This document shows, piece after piece, positions 17,663 through 36,787 of a stretch of 64,000 bases of DNA. The notes beneath the pieces are model-generated. The model was given only the letters and a program-made list of their open reading frames with translations. It did no database searches and was not told the origin of the DNA. Source of the DNA: an uncultured delta proteobacterium. GTDB taxonomy: Bacteria; Desulfobacterota; Desulfobacteria; Desulfobacterales; JAHEIW01. The DNA lies in assembly GCA_963706575.1 (NCBI GenBank), contig CAVPNL010000015.1, positions 160,001 through 224,000 on the forward strand, given 5' to 3'. Position 1 is the first letter of the stretch, and the number at the start of each line of letters is the position of its first letter. The translations under genes and the position numbers were made by a program.

Positions 17663-18142
17663 GTGGTGAAATTCAGGTCATTTTACAACAGATATAAAGA
17701 TATGCTTTTTGCTTACCTGATGCGTACTAGCGGTGATTATTACCTGTCCGGCGACATCATGCAGGAAAGCTTTACCCGTTATCTCGACCGATACGGCAAA
17801 CGCGAACCGAGCGCGCCCCTGCTTTTTAAAATCGCACGCAACGCCCTGCTGGACCATCGGCGCAAATCGAATCGCACCTCCCAGTTCCGGGATGAAAACG
17901 AGCTTCAGGGCGGTAATCCGGAGCATCATCTGATGGTCAGGGACGAATACCGGCGTACGCTGTTAGCCATACAGCAACTGGAGGCGGCCGAAAGGGATAT
18001 TTTAAGCCTCGTTGTCAGCAGTGATCTGTCTTATCGGGAAATTGCAGAAATTCACCGTACCAGCGAGCAGAATATAAAAGTCAAAGTTCATCGGGCCCGG
18101 GTGAAACTCAGAGAAGCCCTTGGAGAAAGGGATAAGAAATGA
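17663..18142 (+). CDS. ECF RNA polymerase sigma factor
   Basis: DIMQESF, LFKIARNALLDHRRK, LSYREIAEI...IKVKVHRAR. Confidence 0.92.
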   Translation: MVKFRSFYNRYKDMLFAYLMRTSGDYYLSGDIMQESFTRYLDRYGKREPSAPLLFKIARNALLDHRRKSNRTSQFRDENELQGGNPEHHLMVRDEYRRTLLAIQQLEAAERDILSLVVSSDLSYREIAEIHRTSEQNIKVKVHRARVKLREALGERDKK

Positions 18143-18696
18143 AGGATTATTTGATCAGTATGTTCATCGATGACGAGATGAATGTCGATGAAAAAATCGA
18201 GTTTGTCGAGACGGTCCACAGCGACGCGGCGGTCAAAGACGAAACCATCGGTCTCCTGCAGCAGGAAAAGGTGATTCGCGCCCGGGTGGTTGACCGAATT
18301 GGCGGCGCTCAGGTGGACATCCGGCCGACGCTGCATCTGCGATTTTGGAAGCCGGCCGCGGCTTTTATGGGTGGACTGGCGGCAGCCCTGATCATTGTCT
18401 TTTTTGCGCAGCCGGAGCCGAAAATGGCGGCCGTGCCTTACCGGTTCGTCATTTATCAACCCGATGCCGGTCAGGTTGAACTTACCGGCAGTTTCACCGG
18501 CTGGAACACCATCCCCATGAAAAAGATGGGGGCCAGCGGATACTGGGAGGCAACAATTGATCTTTATCCGGGTGAACATCATTACAGTTACATCCTCGAG
18601 GGCGGCCGGCGCGTGCCCGACCCGACGATTTTGACACGCGAGAAAGACGATTTTGGTGGCGAAAATTCAATTATAGATATACACAGGAAGGTATGA
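18139..18696 (+). CDS. putative anti-sigma factor with one TM helix and C-terminal CBM48/AMPK-type glycogen-binding domain
   Basis: ATGA overlap with sigma gene; LISMFIDDEM N-terminus; VELTGSFTGW...GYW...PGEHHYSYIL...PDP...DDFGGENS. Confidence 0.8.
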   Translation: MKDYLISMFIDDEMNVDEKIEFVETVHSDAAVKDETIGLLQQEKVIRARVVDRIGGAQVDIRPTLHLRFWKPAAAFMGGLAAALIIVFFAQPEPKMAAVPYRFVIYQPDAGQVELTGSFTGWNTIPMKKMGASGYWEATIDLYPGEHHYSYILEGGRRVPDPTILTREKDDFGGENSIIDIHRKV

Positions 18697-19019
18697 AAAG
18701 ATGGTTGATTCCCGTTTACGCCATACTGCTTCTGATATCAGGCTGCACCGGGCGCCTCTACCGGGTGGAGGATGATCGGGTGACTTTCTATCTGGACTTG
18801 CCGGCTGCGCAGCAAGTTGATTTTGCCTATTCTCTTGATGAATTCAGGTTGCATAAAGTTAAAAAAAAGCAGGGCGGCACATGGGAAATCGCCGTCCCGG
18901 CGGACATTGAATTCAGATATTTCTTTATTGTCGATGGGGTGGTGTACCTCCCCGGGTGTGATCTCAGGGAAGCAGACGATTTCGGCTCCGGAAACTGCAT
19001 TTTCGAGCCTGCCCGCTGA
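18693..19019 (+). CDS. lipoprotein with CBM48-like domain
   Basis: lipobox LISGC; GTW...FRYFFIVDG...DDFGSGNC. Confidence 0.75.
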   Translation: MKRWLIPVYAILLLISGCTGRLYRVEDDRVTFYLDLPAAQQVDFAYSLDEFRLHKVKKKQGGTWEIAVPADIEFRYFFIVDGVVYLPGCDLREADDFGSGNCIFEPAR

Positions 19020-19057
19020 CGGGCAACATCATAGAATGCGATGGAGCTTCACGTGCC

Positions 19058-19984
19058 ATGAAAAAAATGATGAAAAAATTCTGTATCACAGCAGGCATCC
19101 TGCTGCTGGCGACCACCATCGCCGGCGCGGATGCGGTGGAACAGGCCCTGTCCGACATTGCCCCGCAGGCGGTTGTGCAGAGCACGCGCGAACTGATTGA
19201 ATCCGGCCTGGTGTCTGAGCGCGCCATCGAAGTGACCCGGGACATGCTGCAAAATCGGTTCGAGACGCCGCAGATCGCCGCGGCGCACCGGGTGCTGCTG
19301 AAAGCCCAAAACCAGGGATTGCCGCCGGGCCCCATTATCGATAAAGCCCTTGAAGGCATGGCCAAGCACGTTCAGGCAGACCGGATTGTCCGGGCGATGG
19401 ACGCGGTTCGAGCGCGGTATGACTTTTCGCTCCATGAGGCCCGTAAACTCACCGCCCGCAAATCCCCAATGAATCAGATAGGGCATGTCATTGCCGCCGG
19501 GCTGAGCGCCGGATTGACCCCGCAAAGCGTTGAATCCATCACCGAAGGGCTTCAGGAACGATCCCGTGCAATGAATACCGACCAGCGAGACGCTCTGGCA
19601 CTGGAGACTTTTAAAATGGCCCGGGATATGGCGCGTCTGGGCGTATCCCCTTCGCAGACCGCAGCGGTGATCGGGCAGGCGCTGCAGCATCAGTTTAGCG
19701 TCAGGCAGATGCAAAATATGCGTACGGCCTTTCGAAACGATTCCCGTACGACCGCATCTCAGGGACTGGCGGCCACTTACGACCGGGCCATTCAGCAAGG
19801 AAAAAGTTTTGAAGGCCCCGGCGGCGGTCAGATGGGCGAAGGCCATGGCGCCGGGTCGACCGGCGGAGCCGGGGGCGGACCGGGCGGTTCCGGCTCCGAA
19901 GGCGGCGGCCCGGGAAGCGGCCCGGGCGGCGGTCCTGGCGGTGGTCCTGGCGGTGGAGGTGGTCCCGGAGGTTCCGGCAGTTAG
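19058..19984 (+). CDS. secreted helical protein with Gly-rich low-complexity tail
   Basis: signal peptide; C-terminal GPGG-rich tail; followed by a terminator. Confidence 0.75.
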   Translation: MKKMMKKFCITAGILLLATTIAGADAVEQALSDIAPQAVVQSTRELIESGLVSERAIEVTRDMLQNRFETPQIAAAHRVLLKAQNQGLPPGPIIDKALEGMAKHVQADRIVRAMDAVRARYDFSLHEARKLTARKSPMNQIGHVIAAGLSAGLTPQSVESITEGLQERSRAMNTDQRDALALETFKMARDMARLGVSPSQTAAVIGQALQHQFSVRQMQNMRTAFRNDSRTTASQGLAATYDRAIQQGKSFEGPGGGQMGEGHGAGSTGGAGGGPGGSGSEGGGPGSGPGGGPGGGPGGGGGPGGSGS

Positions 19985-20079
19985 TCTTAAAAACGATGGT
20001 GCCGTCCTGAAGCTTTCCGGATGACAGCAGCTGAATTTACCTGCCTGAGCAAACGCAGCGCTTTTAATTTCCTTCTCCG

Positions 20080-20109
20080 AAGCGGGGCCCATGGGGCCCC
20101 GCTTTTTTT
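20080..20109 (+). terminator. intrinsic terminator
   Basis: AAGCGGGGCCC-ATG-GGGCCCCGCTT followed by a T run. Confidence 0.85.
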
Positions 20110-20147
20110 GGAGGAGGGGTCTGTGGGGAAAAAAAACATAAAAAATT

Positions 20148-20173
20148 TGTAACCTTTTCCAATGCGAGCCGTT
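20148..20173 (+). promoter_or_regulatory. second ECF-type promoter
   Basis: AAAATTTGTAAC-N16-CGTT, matching 17626-17651. Confidence 0.65.
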
Positions 20174-20297
20174 TATGGTTTGAAACGCGCGCAAATATCC
20201 GCGAAAAAACTGGGCTGTCCGGGGCAGGAATTGAACCCGAAAAACGGAGAGGACCTGTTCCCGGTCTCCTGAGACAATTTCAGGAAAAGGAGGAGAA

Positions 20298-20824
20298 ATG
20301 ATGTCAAAAAAGATTATTTCCGCGATATGGCCGCTGATGGTGTTGGGCTTCATGCTGACGGCGACATGGGCGGCAACACCCGATGATTTTAATTTTCAGA
20401 AGCCGATCGCACTGAGTTCGCAAAACCGTGCGGTAGGCGGCTGTCCAATGGCAGCCGACATGCTGAGAGATCCGTTTGTTCTCGCCCAAGGTGGTGGCGG
20501 CGGTGGTGGCGGCGGTGGCGGCGGTCCGGTGACGCTGGCGGTTCGGGCGGCAGCGGTGGTCCGGGCGGTTCCGGTAACGGCCAGGGCGGCAACAGCGACA
20601 GTAACGGCGGCGATGCCCTGGGCGGCAGAGGACCAAAGGGCGGCCAGCAATCGAATCAGCAGCAGCAATTACAGCAGCATTTGCAGGTCCAAAATCAGCA
20701 TCAACATCAGCATCAACATCAGCACCAGCATCAGCACCAGCATCAAGAACAAGAACCGCAGGAGCAACAGCAGCACCACCAGTATCAACATCACCACCAG
20801 TACCGGTACGGGCAAACGCCTTAA
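20298..20824 (+). CDS. secreted Gly-rich and (Gln-His)n protein, one frameshift near 20524
   Basis: RBS AGGAG, signal peptide, poly-Gly; shifted frame reads SGDAGGSGG...QN(QH)8QEQEP...HHHQYRYGQTP*. Confidence 0.65.
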
Positions 20825-20996
20825 TAATGCTCTGCTATAATATCTAACGGTCCCGGTAACGGCGGCTGAGCCGGTCCTCGGCGTTCAATGGTCGGTCAGT
20901 CGCCGCCGGGCCTGGCTCAAAGCCGCAGAGTTGACTTTCCAGCACTGGTGAGGTGTCTATTAAGCAGATGGAGAATTGAAATAGTTTAAATTAAAA

Positions 20997-21042
20997 TGCG
21001 CCATCACACAATTTGTGCCGCAATAAAGTGTGTCATGTTACA
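20997..21042. promoter_or_regulatory. putative enhancer (UAS) A: two 14-bp boxes 32 bp apart
   Basis: TGCGCCATCACACA and TGTGTCATGTTACA; homologous to 28815-28860 and 33320-33365. Confidence 0.7.
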
Positions 21043-21100
21043 CTCGAAGCGCCGGCGTTTTTCCGTCAAACCCCTCGGATCATCAAGACTTGCTTTTCGA

Positions 21101-21113
21101 TAACTAATTGATA
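21101..21113 (-). promoter_or_regulatory. IHF-binding site
   Basis: TATCAATTAGTTA on the minus strand matches WATCAANNNNTTR, between UAS and promoter. Confidence 0.55.
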
Positions 21114-21165
21114 TTTTAACAATTAATTCCAACACATTGAGAATCCGGTGTATGGAAGCTTTTTC

Positions 21166-21180
21166 TGGCACAAATCTTGT
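21166..21180 (+). promoter_or_regulatory. sigma54 -24/-12 promoter
   Basis: TGGCAC-AAATC-TTGT. Confidence 0.6.
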
Positions 21181-21289
21181 TTTACAAAATCTACAAGAGT
21201 CTTAGATTACGCAGCAGGTCTGTTAAGCGGTTTTCGATCCTAAAAACGGCAAGGCGCACGTTCTGCATTCATCACGGAATTGGCTGAAA

Positions 21290-21487
21290 ATGAACGATTT
21301 CAAAACGCTATCATCGGACAGAGGGAACGGAGAGGAAAAATTCTGCCCCGTGCTCATCGACCCCGAGCCGGACTGTTACTGCTTCAACCTCAACAGCCAG
21401 AACATTGCCTTTGCCCTGAAGTACTGCCAGGGCAACTATGTGGCCTGTGACATTTATCAGCGTGTGCTAAATAGAGAAAATCCCTGA
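21290..21487 (+). CDS. small Cys-rich protein (65 aa)
   Basis: CP...CYC...YC...C.IY, five Cys; sigma54-like promoter upstream. Confidence 0.6.
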   Translation: MNDFKTLSSDRGNGEEKFCPVLIDPEPDCYCFNLNSQNIAFALKYCQGNYVACDIYQRVLNRENP

Positions 21488-21825
21488 GATTTCTTGCAGT
21501 TCTCCTGACAGAAAAGCACTATTCCTGCAAATCGAAAACCGCAACATCTTTTGTATAATGGAATTTGATATATTCTGCCCGAGGCGCTTAACGGCTCCAT
21601 CGGGCGTTGTAGACTGCAAAGCTCAGCGGCGTTGCCCGCGATTGGTGGCGATAAGGGGCTTTGCTCGGCGGCTGGCACAATGAGGGAATATTCCACCTGA
21701 GTGAAACGATTTTTTTAAAAGCGGCTCTGCAGAGCCGCGTCCAAGAAGTCTTTTATCTTTACTGACCCCTCCAAGCCATTTCAAGGCCCTCGACTGACAC
21801 GGTCCATACGGAAACCTGGAAAGTC

Positions 21826-22422
21826 CTAGTCCTCGCTATTCGGTTTTTTCTTTCCCTTCTTGTTTTTGCCTATAGCCTTCCAGAGCACTTCCAGAGTCTC
21901 CTGGTTACGTAGAAGAACAGCGCTTACGCCGCCATTTGTTTTTACGACCACCCACAAGGCGATGAGATCTTCCCCTTCCAGACATGGATAGTAACCGATA
22001 GCAACATTGTCACCCGGCCTGGGTTGGGGAATTGCAGAGGTTGCTTCCATGACCGTATACTGTTCACTTTCATCAGTTATAGGCAAACAGTTACTATCAT
22101 CAATTTCCAGGGTAACAGCGTTTTCCCAATAAAACGCCGGCCCTATGCCCAAGATTGTCGTTACGTTCCCATCCACGCACTCATTGCAGTCGTCGTTGCC
22201 GTCTCCGGGGCAATCTATTGGCCCATCGTTCAGAGTCTCAATGTCACTGCAAATCGTAATTCCATCTTTTCTGTCATCGTGAAGCGATAGGACACACCCG
22301 GACACAACTTCTAATGTGTCCACATTAGGGCCCTTCTTAAATTCTTTACCAAAGGCCTGCACGGCTGCGAAGATCATGATGGTTGCCAATCCAACAAGCA
22401 CTATCCGGATAGAATTTTTCAT
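21826..22422 (-). CDS. secreted acidic Cys-containing hypothetical protein
   Basis: RBS AAAGGAG, signal peptide MKNSIRIVLVGL..., Lys-rich C-terminus. Confidence 0.65.
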   Translation of the reverse strand: MKNSIRIVLVGLATIMIFAAVQAFGKEFKKGPNVDTLEVVSGCVLSLHDDRKDGITICSDIETLNDGPIDCPGDGNDDCNECVDGNVTTILGIGPAFYWENAVTLEIDDSNCLPITDESEQYTVMEATSAIPQPRPGDNVAIGYYPCLEGEDLIALWVVVKTNGGVSAVLLRNQETLEVLWKAIGKNKKGKKKPNSED

Positions 22423-22479
22423 CGTAACGCTTTCTCCTTTGTTAATGTTTTGTAACTTCGCCATCCACGCTTCAACATT

Positions 22480-22815
22480 GCGCTCGGGATTGACGCCTCA
22501 GCCAACGATCGGGCCGCCTGCGGCCGAAACCCCGTGGCCTCGTTCAGGTTCCGTTCGGATTCCATCCCGGAAAGCTTACCGGCGCCGGTCTTGCTCAGGA
22601 TATATTCCAGATCGTACAGGTGGTCGATGCCATCATCCTCGGCCACGGGATCGCCGGTCCACTCGAAGGCTTCCGAATCGAAGCGATCGCTTTTGCTTTT
22701 GCCCACGACCATGAGACCACCGGCCGCGGATCCGAACTTATGGGCAGTTCCGGTGGCCACGCTGTCAGGCTTCTACCTGGAAAGCCCGCCCAGCGCTTTG
22801 TCACCCACTACCCGA
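22480..22815 (-). pseudogene. degenerate duplicate of the 3' part of the neighbouring repeat-protein gene
   Basis: DSEAFEWTGDPVAEDDGIDHLYDLEYILSKTG aligns with DSEAFVWAGNPVLEDDEIGYMYDLEYILTKTG; no 5' part, frame broken. Confidence 0.8.
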
Positions 22816-22858
22816 TGGCGCTACCATACAGGATACCATGGCGGCCCGGGCTCAAGTG

Positions 22859-22891
22859 ATTGCCCCGCCCGGGAGACCCGGGCGGGGCAAT
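22859..22891 (-). terminator. strong GC hairpin after the repeat-protein gene
   Basis: ATTGCCCCGCCCGGG-AGA-CCCGGGCGGGGCAAT. Confidence 0.55.
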
Positions 22892-22961
22892 GGCAATGTC
22901 CGGGGGGGCAGGACCGCCGGCCGCCATAAATTTTTTCGGGCCGAATCCTGCCCGGCCGGAG

Positions 22962-24370
22962 CTACTCGTGGGTGAAGACCAGCTCATCGAACGGGAAACC
23001 CGTAACCACCCAGGCTTCGACCCCGCCCTCGGGGTTGATGCCCCAGCCGACGATCCGATCGCCGGCATCCGACACCCCCGTGGCCTGGTTCAGGATCCAC
23101 TCGGAACCCATCCCGGACGCTTCACCGACACCGGTCTTGGTCAGGATGTACTCGAGGTCGTACATGTATCCGATCTCATCGTCCTCGAGGACCGGGTTGC
23201 CGGCCCACACGAAGGCCTCGGAGTCGTAGAGGATGCTCTTGCTGTAGCCCACCACGATGAGTTCGCCGACCAACGATCCGGTTCGATATGCGATGCCGGT
23301 CGCCGTGGCGTCGAGCTTCTTCTTGGAAAGCCCGCCCAGCCCCTTGACCACCCACTCTCCGGTAGTGCCGTCCACGAACCAGATGCAGGCCTGGGGGCCC
23401 TTGGGGCTGTCGCTGCGACCCGCGATGATCGCGCCGTCGGGCGTCATGGCATAGGCCTCGCTCCACTGGCCTCCGTCGACATTGGGCAGGACCACGCTCA
23501 ACAGCGTGATCGGGTCGGTGTTCGCGTCAACCACGGTGGTGACAAAGGCCCGGTTGCCCCGCTTGGTGCCCCCATAGCCGGCGATGATCAAGCCGTCCGC
23601 CGACACGGCCTCGGCCTTGGTCCACTGGAGAGTCTGCTCGGTGTAGACCGAATCGGTGATGGTCAGGCGCCTTGACCACCGGCAGCAGCGGGTCGGTCAT
23701 GTCGGCGCGGAATGCCAGCGCGCCGCGCGTGTTGTGGCCGTAGCCCACCATGATGAGCCCGTCGGTCGACACTTCCTTGGCCACCATCTCGGAGACGCCG
23801 CCGCCGAAGTCCGGAATGGTCGTGTAGTCCCCATCATCGACCGAATCGAGCACCGGCAGCAGCCATTGAACGGCGTAGGACACGGTCCCCAGGGTGTATG
23901 TTCCGACGGGCGTCGAGCCGCCCCAGTCGAGATTCAGGTTGGGCAGGTCGTAGCCGGTCGGCATCGTAGGTCATGTCCGAGGACGCATAAGCGGCGCTCG
24001 GCCGGGACGGGGCGATGACCCCGATGTCCTCCTGGACCTGGAGCTCGTTGTAGAGCGGCGGCACCCCGTCGTCGGTGGCGATGGCCCAGTCGATGTCGCT
24101 GCGCCAGGCCCGCTCGAAATCCACCACCACGGTCGAGCCGACGGCCGTCCTCCCGTCGCGGGAGATGCCCAGGGCCTTGGCCGAGTCGTGGGGGCCGTCC
24201 ATGTGACCCCAGCGCCAGAAGTAGAAATCGTCAATCGGCGTTTCGGGCGGAGGGTCCTCGTTCGGCGGCGGCTTCCCGGGGATGCCCCCTTTGGCCCCCC
24301 ATACGGTGGTGCCGGCCGCGAGGAACATTGCGCAAAGCACGATCGTTATAAGAAAGAGTTTTCTTTTCAT
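22962..24370 (-). CDS. secreted HAF-type repeat / beta-propeller-like protein (~468 aa), frameshifts near 23962 and 23668
   Basis: RBS GGAGG, signal peptide; repeats SRDGRTAVG, STDGLIMVG, SADGLIIAG, TPDGAIIAG, SDAGDRIVG spread over three frames. Confidence 0.75.
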
Positions 24371-24530
24371 GATTTCCTCCTTTCGGATAGGTTGATAGGA
24401 AGACGTTAACGGCGGCTGCGGGTAAACCCGCGCCGGCGCGCTTATTTCCGGCGATCCCGTCCCCTTTTTCAAGCGGACTTCGATCGTCCGCGCGTCGTGC
24501 CCTGATCTGTACGCACGCAAACCGTGTCGT

Positions 24531-24559
24531 AGCGGCCCCCGTTTTCGGCGGGGGCCGCT
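24531..24559 (-). terminator. GC hairpin downstream of the large secreted protein gene
   Basis: AGCGGCCCCCG-N7-CGGGGGCCGCT. Confidence 0.5.
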
Positions 24560-24614
24560 CGAACTTAGCGTCAGGGCCTCCCGGCGCTCGATTGCGCTAT
24601 ATTGCGGCGCGGTC

Positions 24615-27600
24615 TTAGCGGTAGTCGACCCGGCGGAACATGATGTCGCTGCTGATGACATCGCCGTTGTCGTTTTTAGCTTCCTCCAGCCAGATGCCGT
24701 ACATGCGCGAGCCGTCCGGCGTCTGGCGCAGCTGGGCCGCGCCCTGCTCGGGCTTGTCCTTGGCCAGCGGGTTCCAGCCCTCCTGGGGCTTGCCGCTGCC
24801 GCCCTGGGGGGTCACGATCACGCTCTCGTAGCGCTGCCCCTTGTCTTTGGTGCGGCTGTAGTCGATGTCCAGCGGCATCTTGGGGTAGACGACGTCGTCG
24901 GGCAGCTGGTTCTGGTTGAACTCGAGGCCGTAGGCCAGCTGGTAGACGCTCTTGTCCCACTTGTCTTCCGGGTACTTGATGGCCCCGTCGGTCAGGATGG
25001 TCCCCGGCGTCTTGACCAGCCGCGGCTCGAGCACGCTGATGCGGTTGTTGCGCAGGTTGGAGACGTTGCGCGGCGGCTCGGCCGCCCCCGGCACGTACAC
25101 GGTGGTGACCACCTCCTCTTCCCAGAAGACCTCCTGATTTTCGTCGTCTTCGATCGGCACCCTGAAGACCACGTTGTGCTCGATGGGCACGGCGTCTGCG
25201 GGATCGGTCGTCCAGGATTGGCCGCCGTTGAAGGAGCGCCGGATAAAGAAGTCGTACTTGTCGTTGGCCTTTCTGCCCCAGTTGGGCGTCAGGCTGTAGC
25301 CGATGAGCAGCTCGTCGCCGTTGATGGCCCCGCGGTGGGCCCGCGCGTCGGTATAGGGGTTTTTGGCGGACGAATCTGCGAGGTTGGCCGCTGACCACCC
25401 CCACCGGAGCATCTTGACCGGCTTCTCAAGGTCATACGGGTTCTGCCACAATTCGGTCGGCTCCACACTGCTGAGGTTCTGGGCGCCGGGCAGGAAGTTG
25501 CCGAAGGCGTAAGGGTTGCCAGTGGCAGAAGCCACTGCGCGCCGCATGAAAATGTCGGCCGGCTTGCCGCTGCCCTCCTCGCCCTGGCGATAGAGGGCCA
25601 CCAGGACCGTCTTGGATGGTCCGGCCTTGGACTTGGGCTGGGTCACGAAGCGCACCCTCCGCGCGTTTTCGTAGGCCAGCTGCGGCTCGCCCTTCCAGTC
25701 AAGCAGCAAATCCCCGAACTCGTCGAACAGGTAGACCGGGTTGCCGTTCTCGTCGGTTTCCGGCAGGTTGACGATGCCCCCGCCGGCGGCGATGTCGGGA
25801 TTGGCGAAATCGAAGCTGTGGTAGATGACGTTTTTGCCCACGTCCGGTTTGTAGCGGTCTTCATCAGGCTCAGTCTCTGAACCTGCCACATCGGGATCAC
25901 AGGGGTCTTCATACTCATCATGGTCCGGGGGCACGCCCACGCCCTTCCTCTCCTCGTAGCCGATGATGGCCCAGGCGCTCTTGCTGCCGTCGGACTTCTT
26001 GTAGGGCTGCAGGAAGATGTTGGCCCGGGAGGCGCCGGTGTTGCCGTCGAGCAGGCGCCCGTCGGCGGTGACGCAGACGTGGTGGACTTCGCCCTTGGGG
26101 TTGGTTTTCTCCACGGTATAGGCGCACAACGGATTGGACCCCGGGAGCTCGGCCGTGCCGATGTTTTCGATGGTGCCGCAGTAGCGGTGGGTGCCCTCGC
26201 CCTCGCCGTCATAATCGTGCTCCCCGCTTCCCCCCGTGGGGACGATGTTCTCCTCGCTGCACATGTCGTTGTCGGAGATCTTCACCGGCAGCGACATGGG
26301 CGCCAGGGCCTTGACCCGTCCGGCCAGATCGGGATCGGTGTCCACGAGGTCGTCATTGTCGCCGTGGCCGCCCTCGGGGTAGTCGTAGTCGATCTTGCCA
26401 AAATCGCTCAGCTTGATGTAGCTGTACCAGATGTCGGTCTTGTTGTTCGTTCTGGCGCCGCTCCAGCCCTCGCCGGGGCCGTCGCCTTCACCGGGCACCA
26501 GGCCCTTGGGGTCCTCCTGCCAGACGATGGCGAACCCGACGCCGGTGCCCGCCCCGGCAAAGAGCTGGTGGGCGTCGCGCCGGCCGGAGGTGAGCCGCTC
26601 GGGCTTGAACCACTGGACATTGCCGCCGGAATCGACCACGCCCCGGGCCGCCCAGACGCAGCTGTAGGGCACCTCGCCCTTTTCGGGATAATCCTCGTAG
26701 ATCACCGAGCGCTGCGGGCCGCCCACGCCCGTAAAGGTCGTCGGCCCAGTAGGCGTCGTCGCCCGGGTAGTCAAGCGTGCACACGGTGCCCTCGGCGGTT
26801 TCGCGGCATATCTCACAGGGATCGGGCAGGCCGTCCCCGTCCGTGTCGGGGCAAACCTTGATGGCGTAGCCCGGCCGCCCGCCCCGGCAGTACTTGTCGG
26901 TCCAGGCCACAAAGATCATGTTGTCCTTGACCTTGAGCATGGGCTTCACGGACTCGCCGGGGTAACCATTAACGTCGAAAGACGACTTGCCGGCGGTCTT
27001 GGAGATGTTGCGGCGCTTCCAGGTCTCGCCGTCGTCCCTCGAGATGGCCACGAACACGTCCGAGGCACCCGTGTCCTCGACCTCGTCAAGATAGGCGACC
27101 ACGATCGGTTTGGCCTCGTTTCGCGTCTCGATCACATTGCCGTCCGCGTCGTGGTAGACGACAGAGGCAGAGCTCCCGTCCGAGCGCTGGGCCGGGACGT
27201 AGACCGGCATGATCTCGATTTTGGCCTTGTCGCTTTTCATATCGGGAGTCTTGGAGATGTTTCGCTTCATCAGGTTGCCGGCCTTCTGGCCGGAGTTGAG
27301 GTTCTCCCGGGCCTCCTCCTTGGAAACGGCCTTCAGTGCGACCTCACCGGCGCAGGCCGCCACCGTCGCGTTGATCAGGGCGCTGACGGCGGCATCATCG
27401 GCGAAGAAGACATCAAGCTCCGGGATCGGAGGAAGGCCATTCAGCGCGTTATCCAGACAGCCGATCACCGTTTCGGTGATGTTGATCGCGCCCTGCGCGG
27501 GGTTGCCGTCCGCGTCCAGGCTCTGCAGCAGCCGGGCCACGTTGAGGACCCGGTAGTCATCCAGGTCGCCTCCCTCGAAGAGGTCTACCGGCGAGACCCG

Positions 27601-28404
27601 GCGATCGGCCAGGACGTCGCCCAGGGGCAGGCTGCCCACGAAAAAGTTGACCCGCTCTTCAGGGATGAACCAGAACTGCCCGTTGTCGCCGGTCGTCCCG
27701 GACTGCGTGGGCGTCTCGAACCTCAGGCCGTTTACGTTGGCGTCGATGAAATGCCCCGGCTCGACCTTGGCCAGCGGGTAGGTGACGTACCAGGCCCACA
27801 CGGCCTCTTCTTTTTCGAGCCGGTCAAAAAACGTCAATTCGTGCTCGGCATAGGCGGACTGGGGGATGTCCACCCAGTTCTCCGTACCGTCGTCATTAAC
27901 GCCGTCTTGCTCATAAAGTTCGACGCGGACGATGACGAAGCGGTTGGGCGGGCACTTTTCCGGATCGACCCCCCAGCAGATCGAGTTTGCTCCCTTGGGA
28001 ATCAGATCTTCAAAGGAAATCACCTCTGTGTGGCCTTCGGCCAGATATCCGTAAGTCCCCAGGTAGTCCGTCTTGTAATCAAATTTGCCGGCGATGGGCT
28101 TGCCTTTTTTGTCTAAAACTTTTTCAAAGTCATCCGGGTCAACGACGACATGGATGTTGACCTTCTCGAGCCTATAACCGATAGTGGGAATGACTTCGAT
28201 TTTCAGTTTGTCTCTGGTGTTCCAGAACTTGACATCGCCCACATACACCCAATCATCAGGGGCAGCCCCATCAATCCAGTTCTTGCACATCAGCTCGGTT
28301 ACGATCGGCCAAAGCGGCTCCCCTTCGGCGCCGGCGCTGCCGCCAGGCAGGCACAGCGCGACAAACAAAAACAAGAGTAAAAATTTTGGTTTAGTCTTAA
28401 ACAT
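24615..28404 (-). CDS. large secreted multidomain protein (~1262 aa) with Asp-box motifs, resembling choice-of-anchor O proteins; frameshift near 26730
   Basis: RBS AAGGAGGTG, signal peptide; SRDDGETW and SFNGGQSW Asp-boxes; DTDGDGLPD; WQEDPKGLVPGEGDGPGEGWSGA; the two ORFs join at YWADDLY/GVGGPQRS by removing one G. Family name is from recollection. Confidence 0.75.
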
Positions 28405-28688
28405 GATTTTCACCTCCTTGTGTGTGTCCGTTATGGCGATCCATCCCGGGCCTCAGGACTGCGGCCCGAAGACCCGGATAAAGTATCCGATCGCCCCCAT
28501 CGTTCGATGCTGCCGGCCGGTCTGCCCGCAGCCCCCCTCCGTCGGCCGTAAATCTTCTGAGATGTCGGATGAGATGTCGGATTGATTTCGCGCTTTTAAT
28601 TATTGCTAATCGCATTCGGGCATCGGTATGCGGTGTCACTGCTGGTTTCGCGGTGTCGTGGCGGGCTTGATACCGAAATTTTTACAGA

Positions 28689-28703
28689 TCAAAAAATGTG
28701 CCA
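28689..28703 (-). promoter_or_regulatory. sigma54 -24/-12 promoter of the secreted-protein operon
   Basis: TGGCAC-ATTTT-TTGA on the minus strand. Confidence 0.6.
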
Positions 28704-28814
28704 TGATGGAAATGCGCCGTCGATGGGCGCACCGAAATGTATGATTGTTTTAAATATTGGCGGGTTATCCGGTGGGTCGGCAGGCGGAAGTAAAAGATCC
28801 TGCCATGCGGGGGA

Positions 28815-28860
28815 TGCGACATGGCACGGTATGAGACGGCAGACTTTGTGCCACGGCGCA
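28815..28860. promoter_or_regulatory. putative enhancer (UAS) C
   Basis: TGCGACATGGCACG and TGTGCCACGGCGCA, 32 bp apart. Confidence 0.7.
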
Positions 28861-29071
28861 TTTTCAAAACGAAGGCAATGGCCTTAACTGCTCTAAATAG
28901 GCCTTTGCTGAGTTCTGATTTCGGGCTTGCCGGGGTCCCTAAAGGTTGCAGCGAATCGGCCGCCTTGCCCTGCTTGCCGGTGCTGCGCTGTGGTGCGCTC
29001 CAGATTCGCCTGCGATCGACCCAATTGGTGCAGAAGCATAGGAAGGCATTGCGGCCGTCCGAACCCAACCC

Positions 29072-30782
29072 TCACGACAGCGCAATGCCGTATTTTTGCA
29101 TCTTGCGGTAGATGGTGCGGCGGCTGATGCCCAGCAGCCCGGCGGCCCGGGACTTGTTCCAGCGGGCTTTGCGCAGGGCCCGGCGGATGGCTTCGGCCTC
29201 CTGGTGCTGCGCTGCACGGGCGGCGACCCGGTCGGCACTGCCCGGTGAAGCTCGCGGAACTCGGCCGGCAGGTGGATCCAGGGTGATGACGCCGCCTCGT
29301 GGCAGCGGACAAAGGCGTGCTCCAGGGTGTTTTCCAGTTCGCGCACGTTGCCCGGCCAGTGGTGGTTCTGGAACATGGTCCACACGTCGGTGGAAACGCC
29401 CTTGATCTTTTTGCCGAACTTCCGGTTGAAAACGGCCAGAAAGTGCTCGACCAGCAGGGGGATGTCGTCGCGGCGCTCGCGCAGAGGCGGCAGCTGGATC
29501 TCCACCACCTTCAGGCGGTAGTAGAGATCTTCACGGAACTTCCCCCCGGCCACTTCGCCTGCAGGTCCTGGTTGGTGGCCGCCACCACCCGCACGTCCAC
29601 CCGGATCGGGGTGGAGTCTCCGACCCGCTCGAACTCCATGGTTTCGAGCACGCGCAGCAGGCGCAGCTGCATGCGCGGGGAGATTTCGCCGATTTCGTCC
29701 AGAAACAGGGTGCCGCCGTCGGCGCGCTGAAAACGGCCGACCTGTCTTTGACCGCACCGGTGAACGCGCCGACCACGTGGCCGAACAGCTCGCTTTCGAG
29801 CAGGTTTTCCGACAGGGCGGCGCAGTTGACCTTGACCAGGGGCCCGTTCCGCCGCTCGCCGCTGCGGTGCAGATCTCGACCACCAGCTCCTTGCCGGTGC
29901 CGCTCTCCCCGGTGACCAGCACGGTGGTCTGGACGTCGGCCAGGTCCTCGATCAGGGACTCGGACCTTGCGGATCTCCTCGCTTTTGCCCACGATGGGGC
30001 CGGTTCCTGCTTTCCTTGAGTCTGCGCTTTCCAGCTCGACAAGGCGCGTTTCATCGCGGATCACCATCACGGCGCCGGTGAACTCATCGGCCGGACCCAG
30101 CAGGGGGGAGGCGGTCAGGCTGACCACCTGGCGCCGGCCGGAGTTCGAACCGGCACTCGACGTAGCGGATTTCCACCGCCTGGCGGGTTTCCAGGATTTC
30201 ATGGAGCGCTTCGATGCACTTGCCCTGGCAGCGTCTGGCCAGCGCGCGGACGGGTTTGCCGATGACCTCGTCGCGCTGCGATACCGCAGATGCGGGTGGC
30301 GGCCTCGTTGATCTCGACCACCACCATGTTCTCGTCCACCGTAACGATGCCGTCCTTGACGCTGCGGAAGATCGCTTCGAAGTTCAGGCGGCAGTTTTCC
30401 TTTTCCTCGGTCACCGCCTTGTGCTTGAGGGCCAGGCGGCGGACCGCAGCAGGGTATCCTGGCGGATCGGCTTGATGATGTAGTCCAGGGCGCCGAGGCG
30501 CAGGGATTCGGTCGCGGTTTCGATGCTGGGCACCCCGGTGATCATGACCACCGGCAGACTCGGGCCGGTCTTCCCGGACCGTCTTGAGCAGGTCGATGCC
30601 GCGTTCTGCCTCCAGGACGATGTCCACGTACATCAAATCGAAGTCGCTTTCCTCGCATCAATGATGACCGCTTCGTCGTAGCTGGCGGTAGCGGTGACCC
30701 GTATGCCCTCTTCGGAAAGGAAAAGGTCGAACGTGTAACGGATGCTCTCCTCGTCGTCGACGACCAGAATTTTTCCATCCAT
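29072..30782 (-). pseudogene. REC-PAS-AAA+-HTH sigma54-dependent activator, many frameshifts
   Basis: [81 protein letters not shown] in different frames. Confidence 0.85.
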
Positions 30783-30792
30783 GATTCAGTCC

Positions 30793-32870
30793 TCAGACGG
30801 TTTTTCCCTGTCCGGCGGGCAGATCGACGCTGACGCGGGTGAACTCGCCTTCACGGCTGTCGATCGTCAGTCGTCCGCCGTGATCGTTCACGATGCCGTG
30901 GCTGATGCTCAGCCCCAGCCCGGTGCGTTTGCCTTCGGTTTTGGTGGAAAAAAACGGATTACGTACCTTGCCGATGATCTCTGGCCGGGATCCCGGTGCC
31001 CTGGTCGCAGAACGACATCCGAACATACGGACAGCCGAGTCGCCCTGTGACGTTTCGGCGATGATCTCCAGCAGCTTGTTCTTATCAGGCTGCGGGATAC
31101 TTCTGGTTCAGGGCATGGCGGGCGTTGCTGATGATGTTGACAAACACCTGCTCGATCTCATGGGCCTGGGCCCGATCAGCGGGGAGATCTGCCGGCGATG
31201 TCCTTCTTCACAACGATGTTGTCTTTGCGCATCTGGGCGCCGGTCAACGCCAGGGAATCGGCACAGGACGTCTTCCACCGCAACCAGTGCTTTTTCCTCC
31301 TGCGCCGGGCGCAAAGGACAGCAGCCCCTCGACGATCCGGGCGATCCGGTCGCCTTCTTTGATCATGCGTCCGCCAGATTCGTGGACCAGGCTGTTTGCG
31401 CTGCTTTTGTTGACCAGAATCTGGGCGTAGTTGATGATGCCGTTGATCGGGTTGTTGATTTCATGGGCGACCCCGGCCGCCATCTCGCCCAGGGCCGCCA
31501 GTTGCTCGGCGCGCATCATGGCGGCCATGGAAGCCTTCTTGGCGGTGACATCTCTCAGCAAAACGACTACTTTTTCTTCCTCATCCACATCCCTGACCGG
31601 TGTATAGAGCCTGTTCAAAAGACCGGCCGTCCGCTGTTTCAAACTCGTGCTGTTGAATCTTACCGGTCCCGAGGGCCTCTCGCATCAAACAGGGCTCACA
31701 CGGGGTGCCCTTTTGCCGAAAGGCACTGAAGCAGGGTTTGTTCTGGCAGTCACCGATACATTCTTTGAGGCTCTTATTCTGGTATTCAATAACCAGATCG
31801 GTGTTGACGATGCTGACCCCTTCCGTCAGGTTGGACAGGATCCGGTTCAGCTTGTCGCGTTCGGACAGAATCGCCTCTTGAGCGTTTTTGAGGTCGGTGA
31901 TATCCTGAAACGATTCGACAATCCCGACGACCTCCCCGTCCGATCCCGAGAAGGGGGTGGCGGTCAGGATGCTCGGGATACTGATCCCGTCCGCCCGCTG
32001 TTTATCCACATAGCATTCCACTGCCTGCTCTCCGGCAATAATGAGCGTCAGGGGGCATTCGGGGGTCGCGCACATGGAACCCGCAAAAACCTCATAGCAT
32101 TTTCTTCCGACGGCATCCGCCTCGTTTACACTGGTCATGTTCGCAAAGGTCCTGTTAATTTTGAGAACATTAAAATCACGGTCGACCACCCGCATACCCA
32201 CCGAAGCGGTCTGAAAAATCTGATCCAGTTCGGCATGGGCCAGCTGCAGGTCCTGTTCCATTTTTTTGCGGTCGCTCAGGTCAAAAAACGCCTCCAGCAG
32301 ATGGTCTTTTCCGTTATATTTAACATGCGTCACGCTTTTAAGTATAGGCAGATTTTCGCCTTCGGCGGTCAGCAGTAATCGCTCCGATTGGTCGATGGTC
32401 TTCCCAAGGTCCAGCACCGGGCAGCTGCCTTTGTCGGCCGGGCACAGGTGTTTGTGGCAGACATGGCCTTCAATGGACTGCTTGGTGGAACCGATCATCT
32501 TAAGGGCGTTGGTGTTAACCCAGCTGACCTTTCGATTCTGCGAATCGACGAGCATTATCCCGGCGGGGTTGTTTTCCAGGATCTCGCTGAGCTCCTTTTC
32601 ACGTTCGTGCAACTCGGCTTCAGCCCGCCGGCGCATGCTGATGCTGTACTGGGCGTAGATGCTGAAGACGATCAGAAGGGTGACCACCAGAACGCGCTTC
32701 CAGGTTTCATGCAGGTCGGGATTCAGTATTTGGGAAACGAGGTTGCCTTCCTGAAAAAAAATGACATGGATCCAGGATTCGAGAAACCAGTAGAACAAAC
32801 CCAGGCCGATGCCGATCCATATAAAATTTTGGGTCGATACCAAGGGGGTTGATTTAGCGGGGTAATGCAT
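30793..32870 (-). pseudogene. membrane-bound multi-PAS sensor histidine kinase, frameshifted in the 3' third
   Basis: two TM helices, three Cys-rich PAS domains, H-box GEMAAGVAHEINNP, FFSTK...TGLGLSISHGIV. Confidence 0.85.
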
Positions 32871-33193
32871 TTTTACCCTCCTGATTGGCGACGGAATTCG
32901 GCGCATTTTATTTTAAGCCGACCCCGAGCCGGCTTCTTCTATCTTGGAGCATCTCTAGAAAACAGGGAAAGGTCAGCGACTGAATGCATTGTTCCGTTCA
33001 ACAACGTCAACCATTACGTGGCGGGCACAGAATCATCTGCTTTATCGTTGCCAAACTACGTCAAACGACGCTGGCGTGTCAAGCCTAAACGCGTGTGATT
33101 CCGGAAGCTTAAATATTAACGATCTCAGAATTCAAAGATAAACGGTGGAATCCCCCCTTGCAGTAAGCGGCAAGTGCTTGATCCAATACCTAA

Positions 33194-33208
33194 CCAAAAA
33201 GCATGCCA
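33194..33208 (-). promoter_or_regulatory. sigma54 -24/-12 promoter upstream of the kinase-activator operon
   Basis: TGGCAT-GCTTT-TTGG on the minus strand. Confidence 0.55.
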
Positions 33209-33319
33209 CCGGTCGCCGGCGGTGTTGGTCTTGATGTCGAGTAAGTATTTTTTATAATGATTTTAATAATTTATTGTTTTATTGCATTGGGGAAGACAAC
33301 CGGGACCTATCGCCGGAAG

Positions 33320-33365
33320 TGTGTCATGGCACAAAGTGTGACGACATACTGTGTGTCATGACACA
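33320..33365. promoter_or_regulatory. putative enhancer (UAS) B
   Basis: TGTGTCATGGCACA and the perfect palindrome TGTGTCATGACACA, 32 bp apart. Confidence 0.75.
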
Positions 33366-33750
33366 CAATGTGCATTCTTCGGGTGACATTGACAAAAAGC
33401 TGAAACGTGGGCAATACAAAAGGGGAACAATTGAAGACCTCGGTGTATCCGATCGGTTTGATCCGGCCACCGGCCTTTTTCCTGGTATAAATACAATCAA
33501 TTTAACATGTTATTTTTGTGGATAAGCATCACAAATCCAGAAAAAGTGAGAAATAGCGATTAAGGACATGCCCAATTTGGATACTTGCATATTTTTGTGG
33601 ACTTGCACTTGCAATATGCAGTTGGTCACTGGCCGGACTATGGTCGGAAGTGCTCTATTGTATAATACGGATATTGACCGAGGACTATTGGCAAAAGTTT
33701 TTAGCGAAGTAGAGAGGATACCGCCAGTATCTTTGAGAACCTCTCGAACC

Positions 33751-33785
33751 AAGGATAATGCAAGTATTCGTAACTTTTCGATTCG
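33751..33785 (+). repeat. 35-bp direct repeat, right copy
   Basis: AAGGATAATGCAAGTATTCGTAACTTTTCGATTCG. Confidence 0.9.
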
Positions 33786-33950
33786 TCTAAAAAAGGCTAC
33801 TGGCAGATGAAGTCATGGGTACAGTTAAAAATTTTACGACCCAACAATCATACCATTATTGAACAGATTAAAATTGATACAAATTAACCAATGAAGTTAT
33901 CATCTGTGAACGATTGAAATAGGAGTTGACTGAAAAGAAACTTAATGTTA

Positions 33951-33969
33951 ATAGAAAATGATTATTATT
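33951..33969 (+). promoter_or_regulatory. Fur/Per box-like operator overlapping the perR promoter
   Basis: ATAGAAAATGATTATTATT downstream of TTGACT at 33926. Confidence 0.55.
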
Positions 33970-33988
33970 TAGGATAAAGAGGCTTCAG

Positions 33989-34432
33989 TTGGCAGACCAT
34001 AAAAAAAGATTTGAAATCATCATCCAAAAATTAAGGGATAATGGCCACAGGATAACGCCTCAGCGGCTGGCTATCGTTAAAATTCTTGCCAAAAGTGAAG
34101 GCCATCCCAGTGTTGAAAATATCCATGTCCAGATAAAAAAAGACTTTCCGACAATGAGTCTTGCCACTGTATACAAAAATATTGTATTAATTAAATCAGT
34201 TGGTGAAGTTCTTGAGTTAGGGTTCCCGGATGGGAGCAACCGATATGATGGAAACAGGCCTAACCCCCATCCACACGTCGTCTGTATCAGGTGCAAAAAA
34301 ATTGTCGACCCAGATCTGGATAACCTGGATGAAATGGAAAAAGAGGTCGCATTAGAGACTAATTTTAAAATTCTGAATCATAGGTTGGACTTTTTCGGTA
34401 TATGCAGCAATTGTATGGCAGAGCAAGTTTAA
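33989..34432 (+). CDS. perR: PerR-like Fur-family repressor
   Basis: RITPQR, HPS, SLATVYK, RYD, HPHVVCIRC, KIVD (Asp as in PerR), CSNC; next to katG. Confidence 0.85.
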   Translation: MADHKKRFEIIIQKLRDNGHRITPQRLAIVKILAKSEGHPSVENIHVQIKKDFPTMSLATVYKNIVLIKSVGEVLELGFPDGSNRYDGNRPNPHPHVVCIRCKKIVDPDLDNLDEMEKEVALETNFKILNHRLDFFGICSNCMAEQV

Positions 34433-34549
34433 TACAGATTTTGCGCTCAAAAAATGGTGCGATGTTGTTCTAACGATCCTTCAAGTCCGCTAAAGTTAAT
34501 TAGATAGATGGGCACCGACGCACGATATTCATAGCAGCACGGTGCCTAA

Positions 34550-36787
<2,238 letters not shown>

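Follow-up and report, generated by a model that had tools for sequence, protein, structure and literature searches.

The stretch analysed here, a window of 64,000 nucleotides from an uncultured delta proteobacterium (contig CAVPNL010000015.1; G000:C15:160001-224000, G000 being the genome of 5.67 Mb in 25 contigs), carries between positions 20,997 and 33,365 three pairs of short repeated boxes, each facing a predicted sigma-54 promoter, together with a kinase gene and the gene of an enhancer-binding activator. Which protein reads these boxes, and what does it switch on? We propose, with a probability of about 70%, that the local activator acts from three arrays to open the predicted promoters of a secreted-protein (cargo) operon, of the kinase-activator operon itself, and of a small cysteine protein.

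Six boxes of 14 bp were located at 20997/21029, 28815/28847 and 33320/33352, with 32 bp within every pair. Array 1 (20997-21042, no strand) consists of a box, 3 bp, a middle site, 3 bp and a second box, 46 bp in all; array 2 (28815-28860, no strand) lies approximately 210 bp behind the activator stop codon, and array 3 (33320-33365, no strand) is the best-scoring pair genome-wide. Using a matrix trained on 14 box pairs, all from genomes other than G000, the three pairs scored 46.1, 34.7 and 28.8 and the next pair in G000, at any spacing of 16-60 bp, 18.2; this ranking is partly circular because some of the training pairs came from a pattern using the window's boxes. The 32-bp twin pattern was found in 14 of 301 genomes of the order and its reversed control in none; the matches in G290 and G231, having three mismatches and neither promoter nor activator, were taken as chance. 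In 15 of 17 arrays a middle TGTGHC (five or six of six positions) stands exactly 3 bp from an outer box; at control offsets 14-16 and 18-20 such a site turns up in 0-3 of the 17. We therefore regard each enhancer as a three-site array of 46 bp. Full 12-bp middle dyads are present in L010 and G036. Near-identical short contigs from an independent run cover 28628-28976 with two differences and 33244-33462 with one, both without gaps. A literature search with five exact box sequences returned no paper, most subscription journals lying outside its coverage; a motif like these boxes may have been described in Desulfovibrio, as the figure logos and supplements of PMC4641369 lie outside our comparison.

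An earlier note on this DNA had placed the paired boxes, with a similar half-site between, at these same three positions, and both observations held. It had called all six boxes consensus, which is exact only for those at 33320 and 33352, the remaining four having one or two mismatches, and it had measured promoter distances of 124, 112 and 112, each one base more than the actual 123, 111 and 111 nt. Its single consensus IHF site was recovered between array 1 and the promoter (21101-21113, minus strand), with no mismatches to WATCAANNNNTTR, which we take to be the IHF consensus; the spacers of arrays 2 and 3 hold no perfect IHF match. The motif scan that it proposed, of the genome and of homologous loci, put the window's pairs on top and showed arrays recurring beside activators elsewhere.

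Two further observations concern the arrays. A Fur-family gene and a gene which we presume to be catalase-peroxidase-like (33989-36787), an oxidative-stress pair beside a possibly redox-sensing switch, diverge from array 3, and action of the array on them was rejected since no sigma-54 element lies on that side within 330 bp. At G000:C15:304720-304925 there is a second three-site array with different bases, again at a spacing of 32 bp, which has a canonical sigma-54 element, precedes a cooS-like carbon monoxide dehydrogenase gene (named from sequence likeness), has no adjoining activator and is probably read by a paralog.

The reader of the boxes was approached from both sides. A motif-first search led from arrays to activators with a recognition helix SR(R/K)T-x-YR, the array being right behind or near the family activator in G049, G189, G226, G201, G209, G123, G220 and L010. 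A search starting from the helix-turn-helix (HTH) domain, independent of the motif, led back to the same boxes, spaced 30, 32 or 34 bp, in G102, G228, G193, G178, G029 and G114, behind activators outside the matrix training. Among the 15 best HTH matches in G000, only that of the window activator has this helix. In the 24 of 43 family activators that could be classified (19 were left out), helices with R or K go with TGTGHC boxes (16 of 16 loci) and those with Q go with TGTAAC boxes (eight of eight). The AAA+ tree shows five changes of the residue and five of the box, but only three independent pairs have good branch support (p=0.25), which makes the covariation suggestive and not proven. Across the family the pairing of helix and box persists through different input domains (REC-PAS, GAF, kinase-GAF). 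The full module of kinase, activator, array, promoter lacking the -12 C and choice-of-anchor O cargo recurs in G049, G189, G226, G123 and the acidobacterial L010. Judged from co-location and covariation, the three arrays are likely the binding sites of the activator encoded between them, and the three targets named in the earlier note (the small cysteine protein, the secreted-protein operon and the kinase-activator operon) are supported on the same grounds. Its self-contained sigma-54 regulon of the local REC-PAS-AAA+ activator likewise gains from these results, with the reservation, taken up below, that the activator gene is broken as assembled.

The predicted sigma-54 elements lie at 21166-21180 (plus strand; -12 TTGT; 123 nt from the array 1 box), 28689-28703 (minus strand; -12 TTGA; 111 nt from the box), which precedes the secreted-protein operon, and 33194-33208 (minus strand; -12 TTGG; 111 nt), which precedes the kinase-activator operon. 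All conform to TGGCAY-N5-TTG[T/A/G], having the -24 GG in a TGGCAC context and the correct -12 spacing, and none has GC at -12, just as the earlier note had remarked of the missing C. Counterparts of the element at 28689-28703 stand at 113-115 bp in G049, G189 and G226. An exact twin-box scan of metagenomes gave 88 stretches, of which 80 were examined; after removal of four tandem repeats and 26 duplicates, 50 distinct arrays remained, many of them from kindred loci. Thirty have a sigma-54 element within 60-200 bp, and several of the 20 without a promoter match are on short or repeat-like contigs. The -12 C is missing in 29 of these 30 promoters (20 G, 6 A, 3 T) and the distance from the array is 110-113 bp in 23. 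Among other-order loci found by the cysteine protein alone, nine of 11 promoters lack the C, as do 18 of 29 in the wider activator family; TTGC is retained where the spacing is 77-89 bp, and several of these loci adjoin GAF-type activators. Intergenic TGGCAY-N5-TTG sites of G000 end in C 41 times, in A 10, in T nine and in G four times, where about three of each are expected. The polymerase of G000 thus mostly uses canonical sites and the ratio is reversed around the array switch; from these comparisons the missing -12 C appears to be a trait of the subfamily. According to Schaefer et al. (PMC4551910), 96% of sigma-54 promoters have retained the -12 C, which holds basal transcription down; its loss therefore suggests a low leak or a lowered threshold.

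Family promoters of other kinds were also seen. In G201 (L030:5381-16200) and G102 (L051) the same array precedes SapC and a giant LEPR-XLL protein, from a promoter whose -24 context is degenerate and whose -12 C is intact. The short-spaced canonical promoters of the family are followed first by the gene of a small unnamed 77-amino acid protein and then by that of a secreted 128-amino acid protein (L032:3600-3917, L036:4358-4591, L037, L153); GAF-type activators adjoin in G220 and none adjoins in G059 and G253.

The promoter at array 1 faces the gene for a 65-amino acid cysteine microprotein (21290-21487, plus strand) with the pattern C-x9-C-x-C-x14-C-x6-C, a member of an unnamed family. It is a real gene, with 11 homologs at 68-97% and 678 clusters at 50% identity; four cysteines are invariant in 150 aligned sequences and the fifth is present in 129. 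No match was found in Pfam, NCBIfam, PDB sequences or folds. Its profile reached at best E 0.37 against PDB sequences, and a fold search with its model (predicted local distance difference test, pLDDT, 71; predicted template modelling score, pTM, 0.52) gave nothing with Z of at least 2 or E below 0.001, a null result that shows neither a new fold nor the absence of a known one. A literature search for the microprotein likewise found no paper, with most subscription journals outside coverage. At order level the gene was found in 19 of 301 genomes; at phylum level, in 12 of 401. In a set of 37 cysteine-gene loci, four of which also served in matrix training, a sigma-54 element lies no more than 330 bp upstream in 24 (reverse-strand control, one), and an activator C-terminus lies within 1.5 kb in 22, before unrelated cargos. 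Behind 18 of 30 metagenomic array promoters the cysteine gene comes first. The cargos that follow it include choice-of-anchor O, Rieske/cytochrome b-like, multiheme, CheW-like and large secreted proteins, most of them named by sequence likeness and not by family scan. The microprotein domain also occurs in fusion proteins, with a PAS kinase in P0255 and with a thioredoxin fold in P0260. The long leaders of the other two window promoters hold no remnant of the gene. As the microprotein appears to travel with the switch and not with the cargo, an accessory role is suggested; the earlier note had it simply as one of the targets, and it proves to be the most constant partner of the activator family.

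The explanation that survives best beside our own is that of an ordinary regulon, in which the activator reads the boxes, the -12 without C is drift that has been inherited and that a strong activator tolerates, and the microprotein is no more than cargo, for example a buffer or chaperone for zinc, copper or iron-sulphur. We consider this a serious possibility, though not the probable one. Roughly one in four of the excess elements in G000 lacks the C, TTGC persists in many promoters of the family, kin share traits, the -12 state changes only six times among 29 activators, and some cargos are metal proteins (NosL, cupredoxin, rubredoxin inserts). Drift, however, accords poorly with 29 of 30 promoters lacking the C at a near-fixed distance and with three different replacing bases, a pattern that resembles avoidance of C, or with the nine of 11 in the other-order set, which was collected by the protein alone; nor would plain cargo be expected to stay first while the cargos change, or to be fused to a kinase as in P0255.

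The secreted-protein operon is read from the minus strand. Its principal product is a choice-of-anchor O protein (24615-28404) of approximately 1250 amino acids with a signal-peptide-like start and one clear frameshift near 26727, which scores 467 bits against NF040591 (cut-off 125). The core of the intact G049 homolog was modelled at pLDDT 82 and pTM 0.86; the protein has Asp-box motifs (S-x-D-x-G-x-T/S-W), and the propeller model matches sialidase-type propellers with Z 13-16.6 at 7-15% identity. The best sialidase match has Z 16.4 with a root-mean-square deviation of 5.8 over about 300 aligned residues, and the non-sialidase CylK ties at 16.6. The core is accordingly predicted to be an Asp-box beta-propeller, on the strength of the model. 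There follow, also on the minus strand, a HAF-repeat-like secreted protein (22962-24370) with two frameshifts and DUF3466-like structural neighbours, which comes after the large protein in L006-L010 as well; a frameshifted partial duplicate of its C-terminal part (22462-22898; 47% to the L006 homolog); and a 198-amino acid orphan (21826-22422) with a signal-peptide-like start and no homolog in the examined loci, possibly the last gene of the operon. NF040591 was found in none of the 21 same-genus genomes searched. Gammaproteobacterial and acidobacterial records contain close homologs of the choice-of-anchor O protein, suggesting a mobile module. The earlier note had described an uncharacterised extracellular system turned on by this switch. 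Uncharacterised it is, a literature search for 'choice-of-anchor O' having returned no paper within a coverage that leaves out most subscription journals, but it is already named, as NF040591, and is not tied to this switch. Co-occurrence of activator and secreted genes, which that note suggested checking, came out on both sides, since the module recurs in five genomes or loci while six of eight genome loci for choice-of-anchor O lack the twin box, which speaks against tight coupling.

Several observations touch the cargo. The proteins of G189 and G226 (L039:9305-13888 and L042:9105-13703) contain two rubredoxin inserts each and lie beside a type II secretion-like cluster. G226 has a second choice-of-anchor O gene (L043), and G189 probably has one too; the second gene of G226 has its own box and promoter lacking the C. 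At the gammaproteobacterial loci L009:15168-15755 and L007:14510-15860 a PAS kinase of another output type adjoins; that of L009 has the same histidine-bearing membrane sensor as the window kinase, and this sensor may travel with the cargo. Next to array 1, at 17663-20840, are an extracytoplasmic function (ECF) sigma factor, an anti-sigma factor with a CBM48-like domain, a CBM48 lipoprotein and Gly/Gln-rich secreted proteins, a cluster that adjoins arrays or the cysteine gene in G049, G184, G274, G263 and 10 of 50 metagenomic array loci.

The third target is the kinase-activator operon itself, from which the earlier note had derived positive feedback. A full array and promoter before the kinase are present in G000 and, in the same layout, in the close metagenomic relatives L196 and L200. 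The dedicated promoter was not found in G049, G189, G226 or L010, and it is missing in nine of 11 kinase loci examined from the metagenome scan; in these nine, the kinase is divergent from the array or lies past it and its strand has no sigma-54 element, and most of the nine fire the other way, toward the cysteine gene. In G123 promoter, cysteine gene, cargo, kinase and activator follow one another on one strand, so that feedback by read-through is possible. Positive feedback is thus plausible in G000 but would not be a constant of the module, the dedicated self-promoter appearing to be confined to this lineage. A TGCA-N7-TGC element was noticed before the kinase gene at L039:4650-4680 (G189), L042:4810-4840 (G226) and L098:7875-7895 (G123); it may be a degenerate sigma-54 site or the site of another regulator.

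The activator (29072-30782, minus strand) is a REC-PAS-AAA+-HTH protein with the recognition helix SRRTIYRK and, as assembled, 10-14 frameshifts. Its AAA+ domain was recognised by PF00158 and PF25601 on the pieces, with GAFTGA and the Walker motif GESGTGKE in pieces and intact homologs alike. All 15 homologs have the phospho-acceptor Asp of the receiver, as does the window translation (PF00072 on L008), and the Fis-type HTH is detected in the window by PF02954. Four PAS cysteines (C-x18-C-x3-C-x20-C) are conserved in 13-14 of 15 homologs, and all are visible in the window translations. The histidine kinase (30793-32870, minus strand) combines a two-helix membrane sensor, with conserved ES-x-x-H and HE-x-W, with three Cys-rich PAS domains, HisKA and HATPase, and has eight frameshifts in its last third. 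Both proteins are 55-60% identical to intact homologs.

These frameshifts raise a second alternative, which is that of a decaying island: on this view the module came in by horizontal transfer, the kinase and activator genes are genuine pseudogenes, and the arrays are silent relics here, although the module works in relatives. About 19 frameshifts are packed into the 2.4-kb block 29200-31600, and since 33 of 35 AAA+ activator domains in G000 are single-frame, the activator is unusually broken and may be a real pseudogene. The GC content of the block is 0.62-0.66 against about 0.48 for the genome, the cargo family is missing from the 21 same-genus genomes, and the partial duplicate at 22462-22898 is broken too. 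Yet the breaks are indels in a single block with no clear nonsense codon, the first 420 codons of the kinase are clean, and near-identical contigs from another run agree with the arrays and promoters, which are themselves near-perfect. A local assembly fault would seem likelier than decay, and the frameshifts are probably assembly errors in genes that are intact in the organism; public near-identical contigs (20 runs with small shares; one RNA run in short pieces) include none that spans a frameshift. We hold decay to be rather unlikely. It is very improbable that some other activator in the genome reads the boxes, or that they act chiefly as operators repressing a sigma-70 promoter of the regulator, because, although G000:C15:304720 has a similar array of different bases and no adjoining activator and several relatives' arrays lie upstream of the kinase with no sigma-54 element on its strand, helix and box agree in 24 of 24 loci, arrays adjoin activators in many families, and the signature belongs to only one HTH among the best matches in G000.

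Several known systems stand close to this one. PspA-PspF, NifL-NifA and ZraP-ZraSR are switches modulated by a partner protein, PspA and ZraP being made from the regulated promoter; the 65-amino acid protein matches none of PspA, NifL or ZraP. NtrC, ZraR, AtoC and the local sigma-54 regulons of D. vulgaris (Kazakov 2015, PMC4641369) also pair a kinase with a receiver-AAA+-Fis HTH activator beside its targets. The D. vulgaris regulons control one to four operons through TGT...ACA dyads, with spacers of 9, 11 or 12 in the paper's text, figure logos and supplements lying outside the comparison, and here the dyad is TGT-N8-ACA. The four-cysteine PAS domain and the -12 without C set the window system apart from the NtrC/ZraR/AtoC types. 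The NCBIfam equivalog scores of the activator were all below cut-off (AtoC 387/714, ZraR 370/760, NtrC 370/558.6, NorR 294/476), as was that of the intact G123 homolog for PrsR (TIGR02915, 351/502.6 bits). NorR of E. coli needs three sites, and at norVW three consecutive enhancer sites could nucleate a hexamer from three dimers (PMC2831303); three consecutive sites are likewise present here. NorR, however, is a one-component GAF activator sensing nitric oxide (PMC2831303), whereas the window protein is REC-PAS, presumably phosphorylated, with a different box and an often degenerate middle site. The PrsK-PrsR regulon of PEP-CTERM proteins (Haft 2006, PMC1569441) resembles the locus in its membrane kinase, sigma-54 regulator, exported surface proteins, shared upstream motif and occurrence in sediment and biofilm bacteria, but its promoters follow GG/GC, the spacer being about 63 nt. 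The PEP-CTERM model had no match on the cargo and no partner gene with tetratricopeptide repeats was seen in the module. OrpR (DVU2106) of D. vulgaris carries a redox-sensitive PAS [4Fe-4S] cluster held by C52, C61 and C65 (PMC8359166). It too is a sigma-54 activator of a small local regulon with a cysteine-bearing PAS that includes a C-x3-C pair; it differs by its site GGGCGYRTTTTGCGCCC, its single-component nature and its three cysteines (C-x8-C-x3-C), where the window activator has four conserved at other spacings plus a receiver, and might by analogy bind Fe-S. The window system is a variant of the ordinary two-component sigma-54 regulon whose novel parts are the microprotein and the promoters lacking the C; take these away and an ordinary local regulon is left. 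In its working it would resemble local regulons of the NtrC/ZraR type, its three-site enhancer being NorR-like and its surface cargo PrsKR-like, yet its scores stay below the cut-offs of all of these. An Rfam search of 20500-34000 gave no match.

From this we propose the following course of events. The membrane kinase presumably phosphorylates the activator before assembly on the arrays. That the local activator then reads the boxes and drives the three promoters is the step of which we are most confident. With somewhat less assurance, but still on the favourable side, three dimers on the outer boxes and the middle site would nucleate one hexamer as in NorR, and IHF or A+T-rich DNA would loop it to the polymerase some 111 bp away. 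The chances are about even that loss of the -12 C weakens the lock on the closed complex, giving a low basal leak or threshold and, at the kinase promoter of this lineage, seeding a self-amplifying loop. More tentatively, the input may be redox or metal status, the activator PAS binding Fe-S or a metal through its four conserved cysteines, as OrpR does; cargos and neighbours with NosL, cupredoxin, NosD-like and rubredoxin domains fit such an input. With a similar degree of confidence, the microprotein may serve the switch as an accessory that binds metal or Fe-S, being the first product when the promoter fires and not itself cargo; possibly it feeds back on the switch.

Several results weigh against parts of this proposal. 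The middle site is often a half-site only, with fewer than five of six positions in 17 of 50 metagenomic arrays. The covariation comes down to the three independent pairs (p=0.25), and many metagenomic loci are kin. Eleven of 29 family promoters retain the -12 C, 13 of 37 cysteine-gene loci have no promoter match, and the cysteine gene and cargo of G000 are not transcribed together. Feedback lacks its dedicated promoter in the relatives listed above, and the activator is broken where its counterparts in the genome are nearly all whole. Thiolase-like, CheW and giant surface proteins are among the cargos of the family, so a redox or metal input does not apply throughout.

A bolder version would see in the locus an undescribed and widespread class of sigma-54 switch in Desulfobacterota and some Acidobacteria, with an Fe-S PAS activator, a three-site enhancer, promoters lacking the C, and a dedicated metal-binding microprotein, made from the first gene of the transcript, that restores control by binding activator or kinase: a portable, cargo-independent, bistable module crossing phyla with large surface proteins. 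Taken as a whole we think this unlikely.

With as many as 69 sigma-54 activators in a genome (PMC12316311), some sets in the Desulfobacteria rank among the largest known. Most of these activators are without known sites or signals, and one large family now has a candidate site, together with a candidate one-residue code in which R or K reads TGTG and Q reads TGTA. The promoters form a class that would be missed by scans requiring GC at -12, and whole regulons without the -12 C would offer a natural test of its role. An unnamed microprotein family of 678 clusters and the unstudied choice-of-anchor O proteins are thereby placed in a testable circuit.

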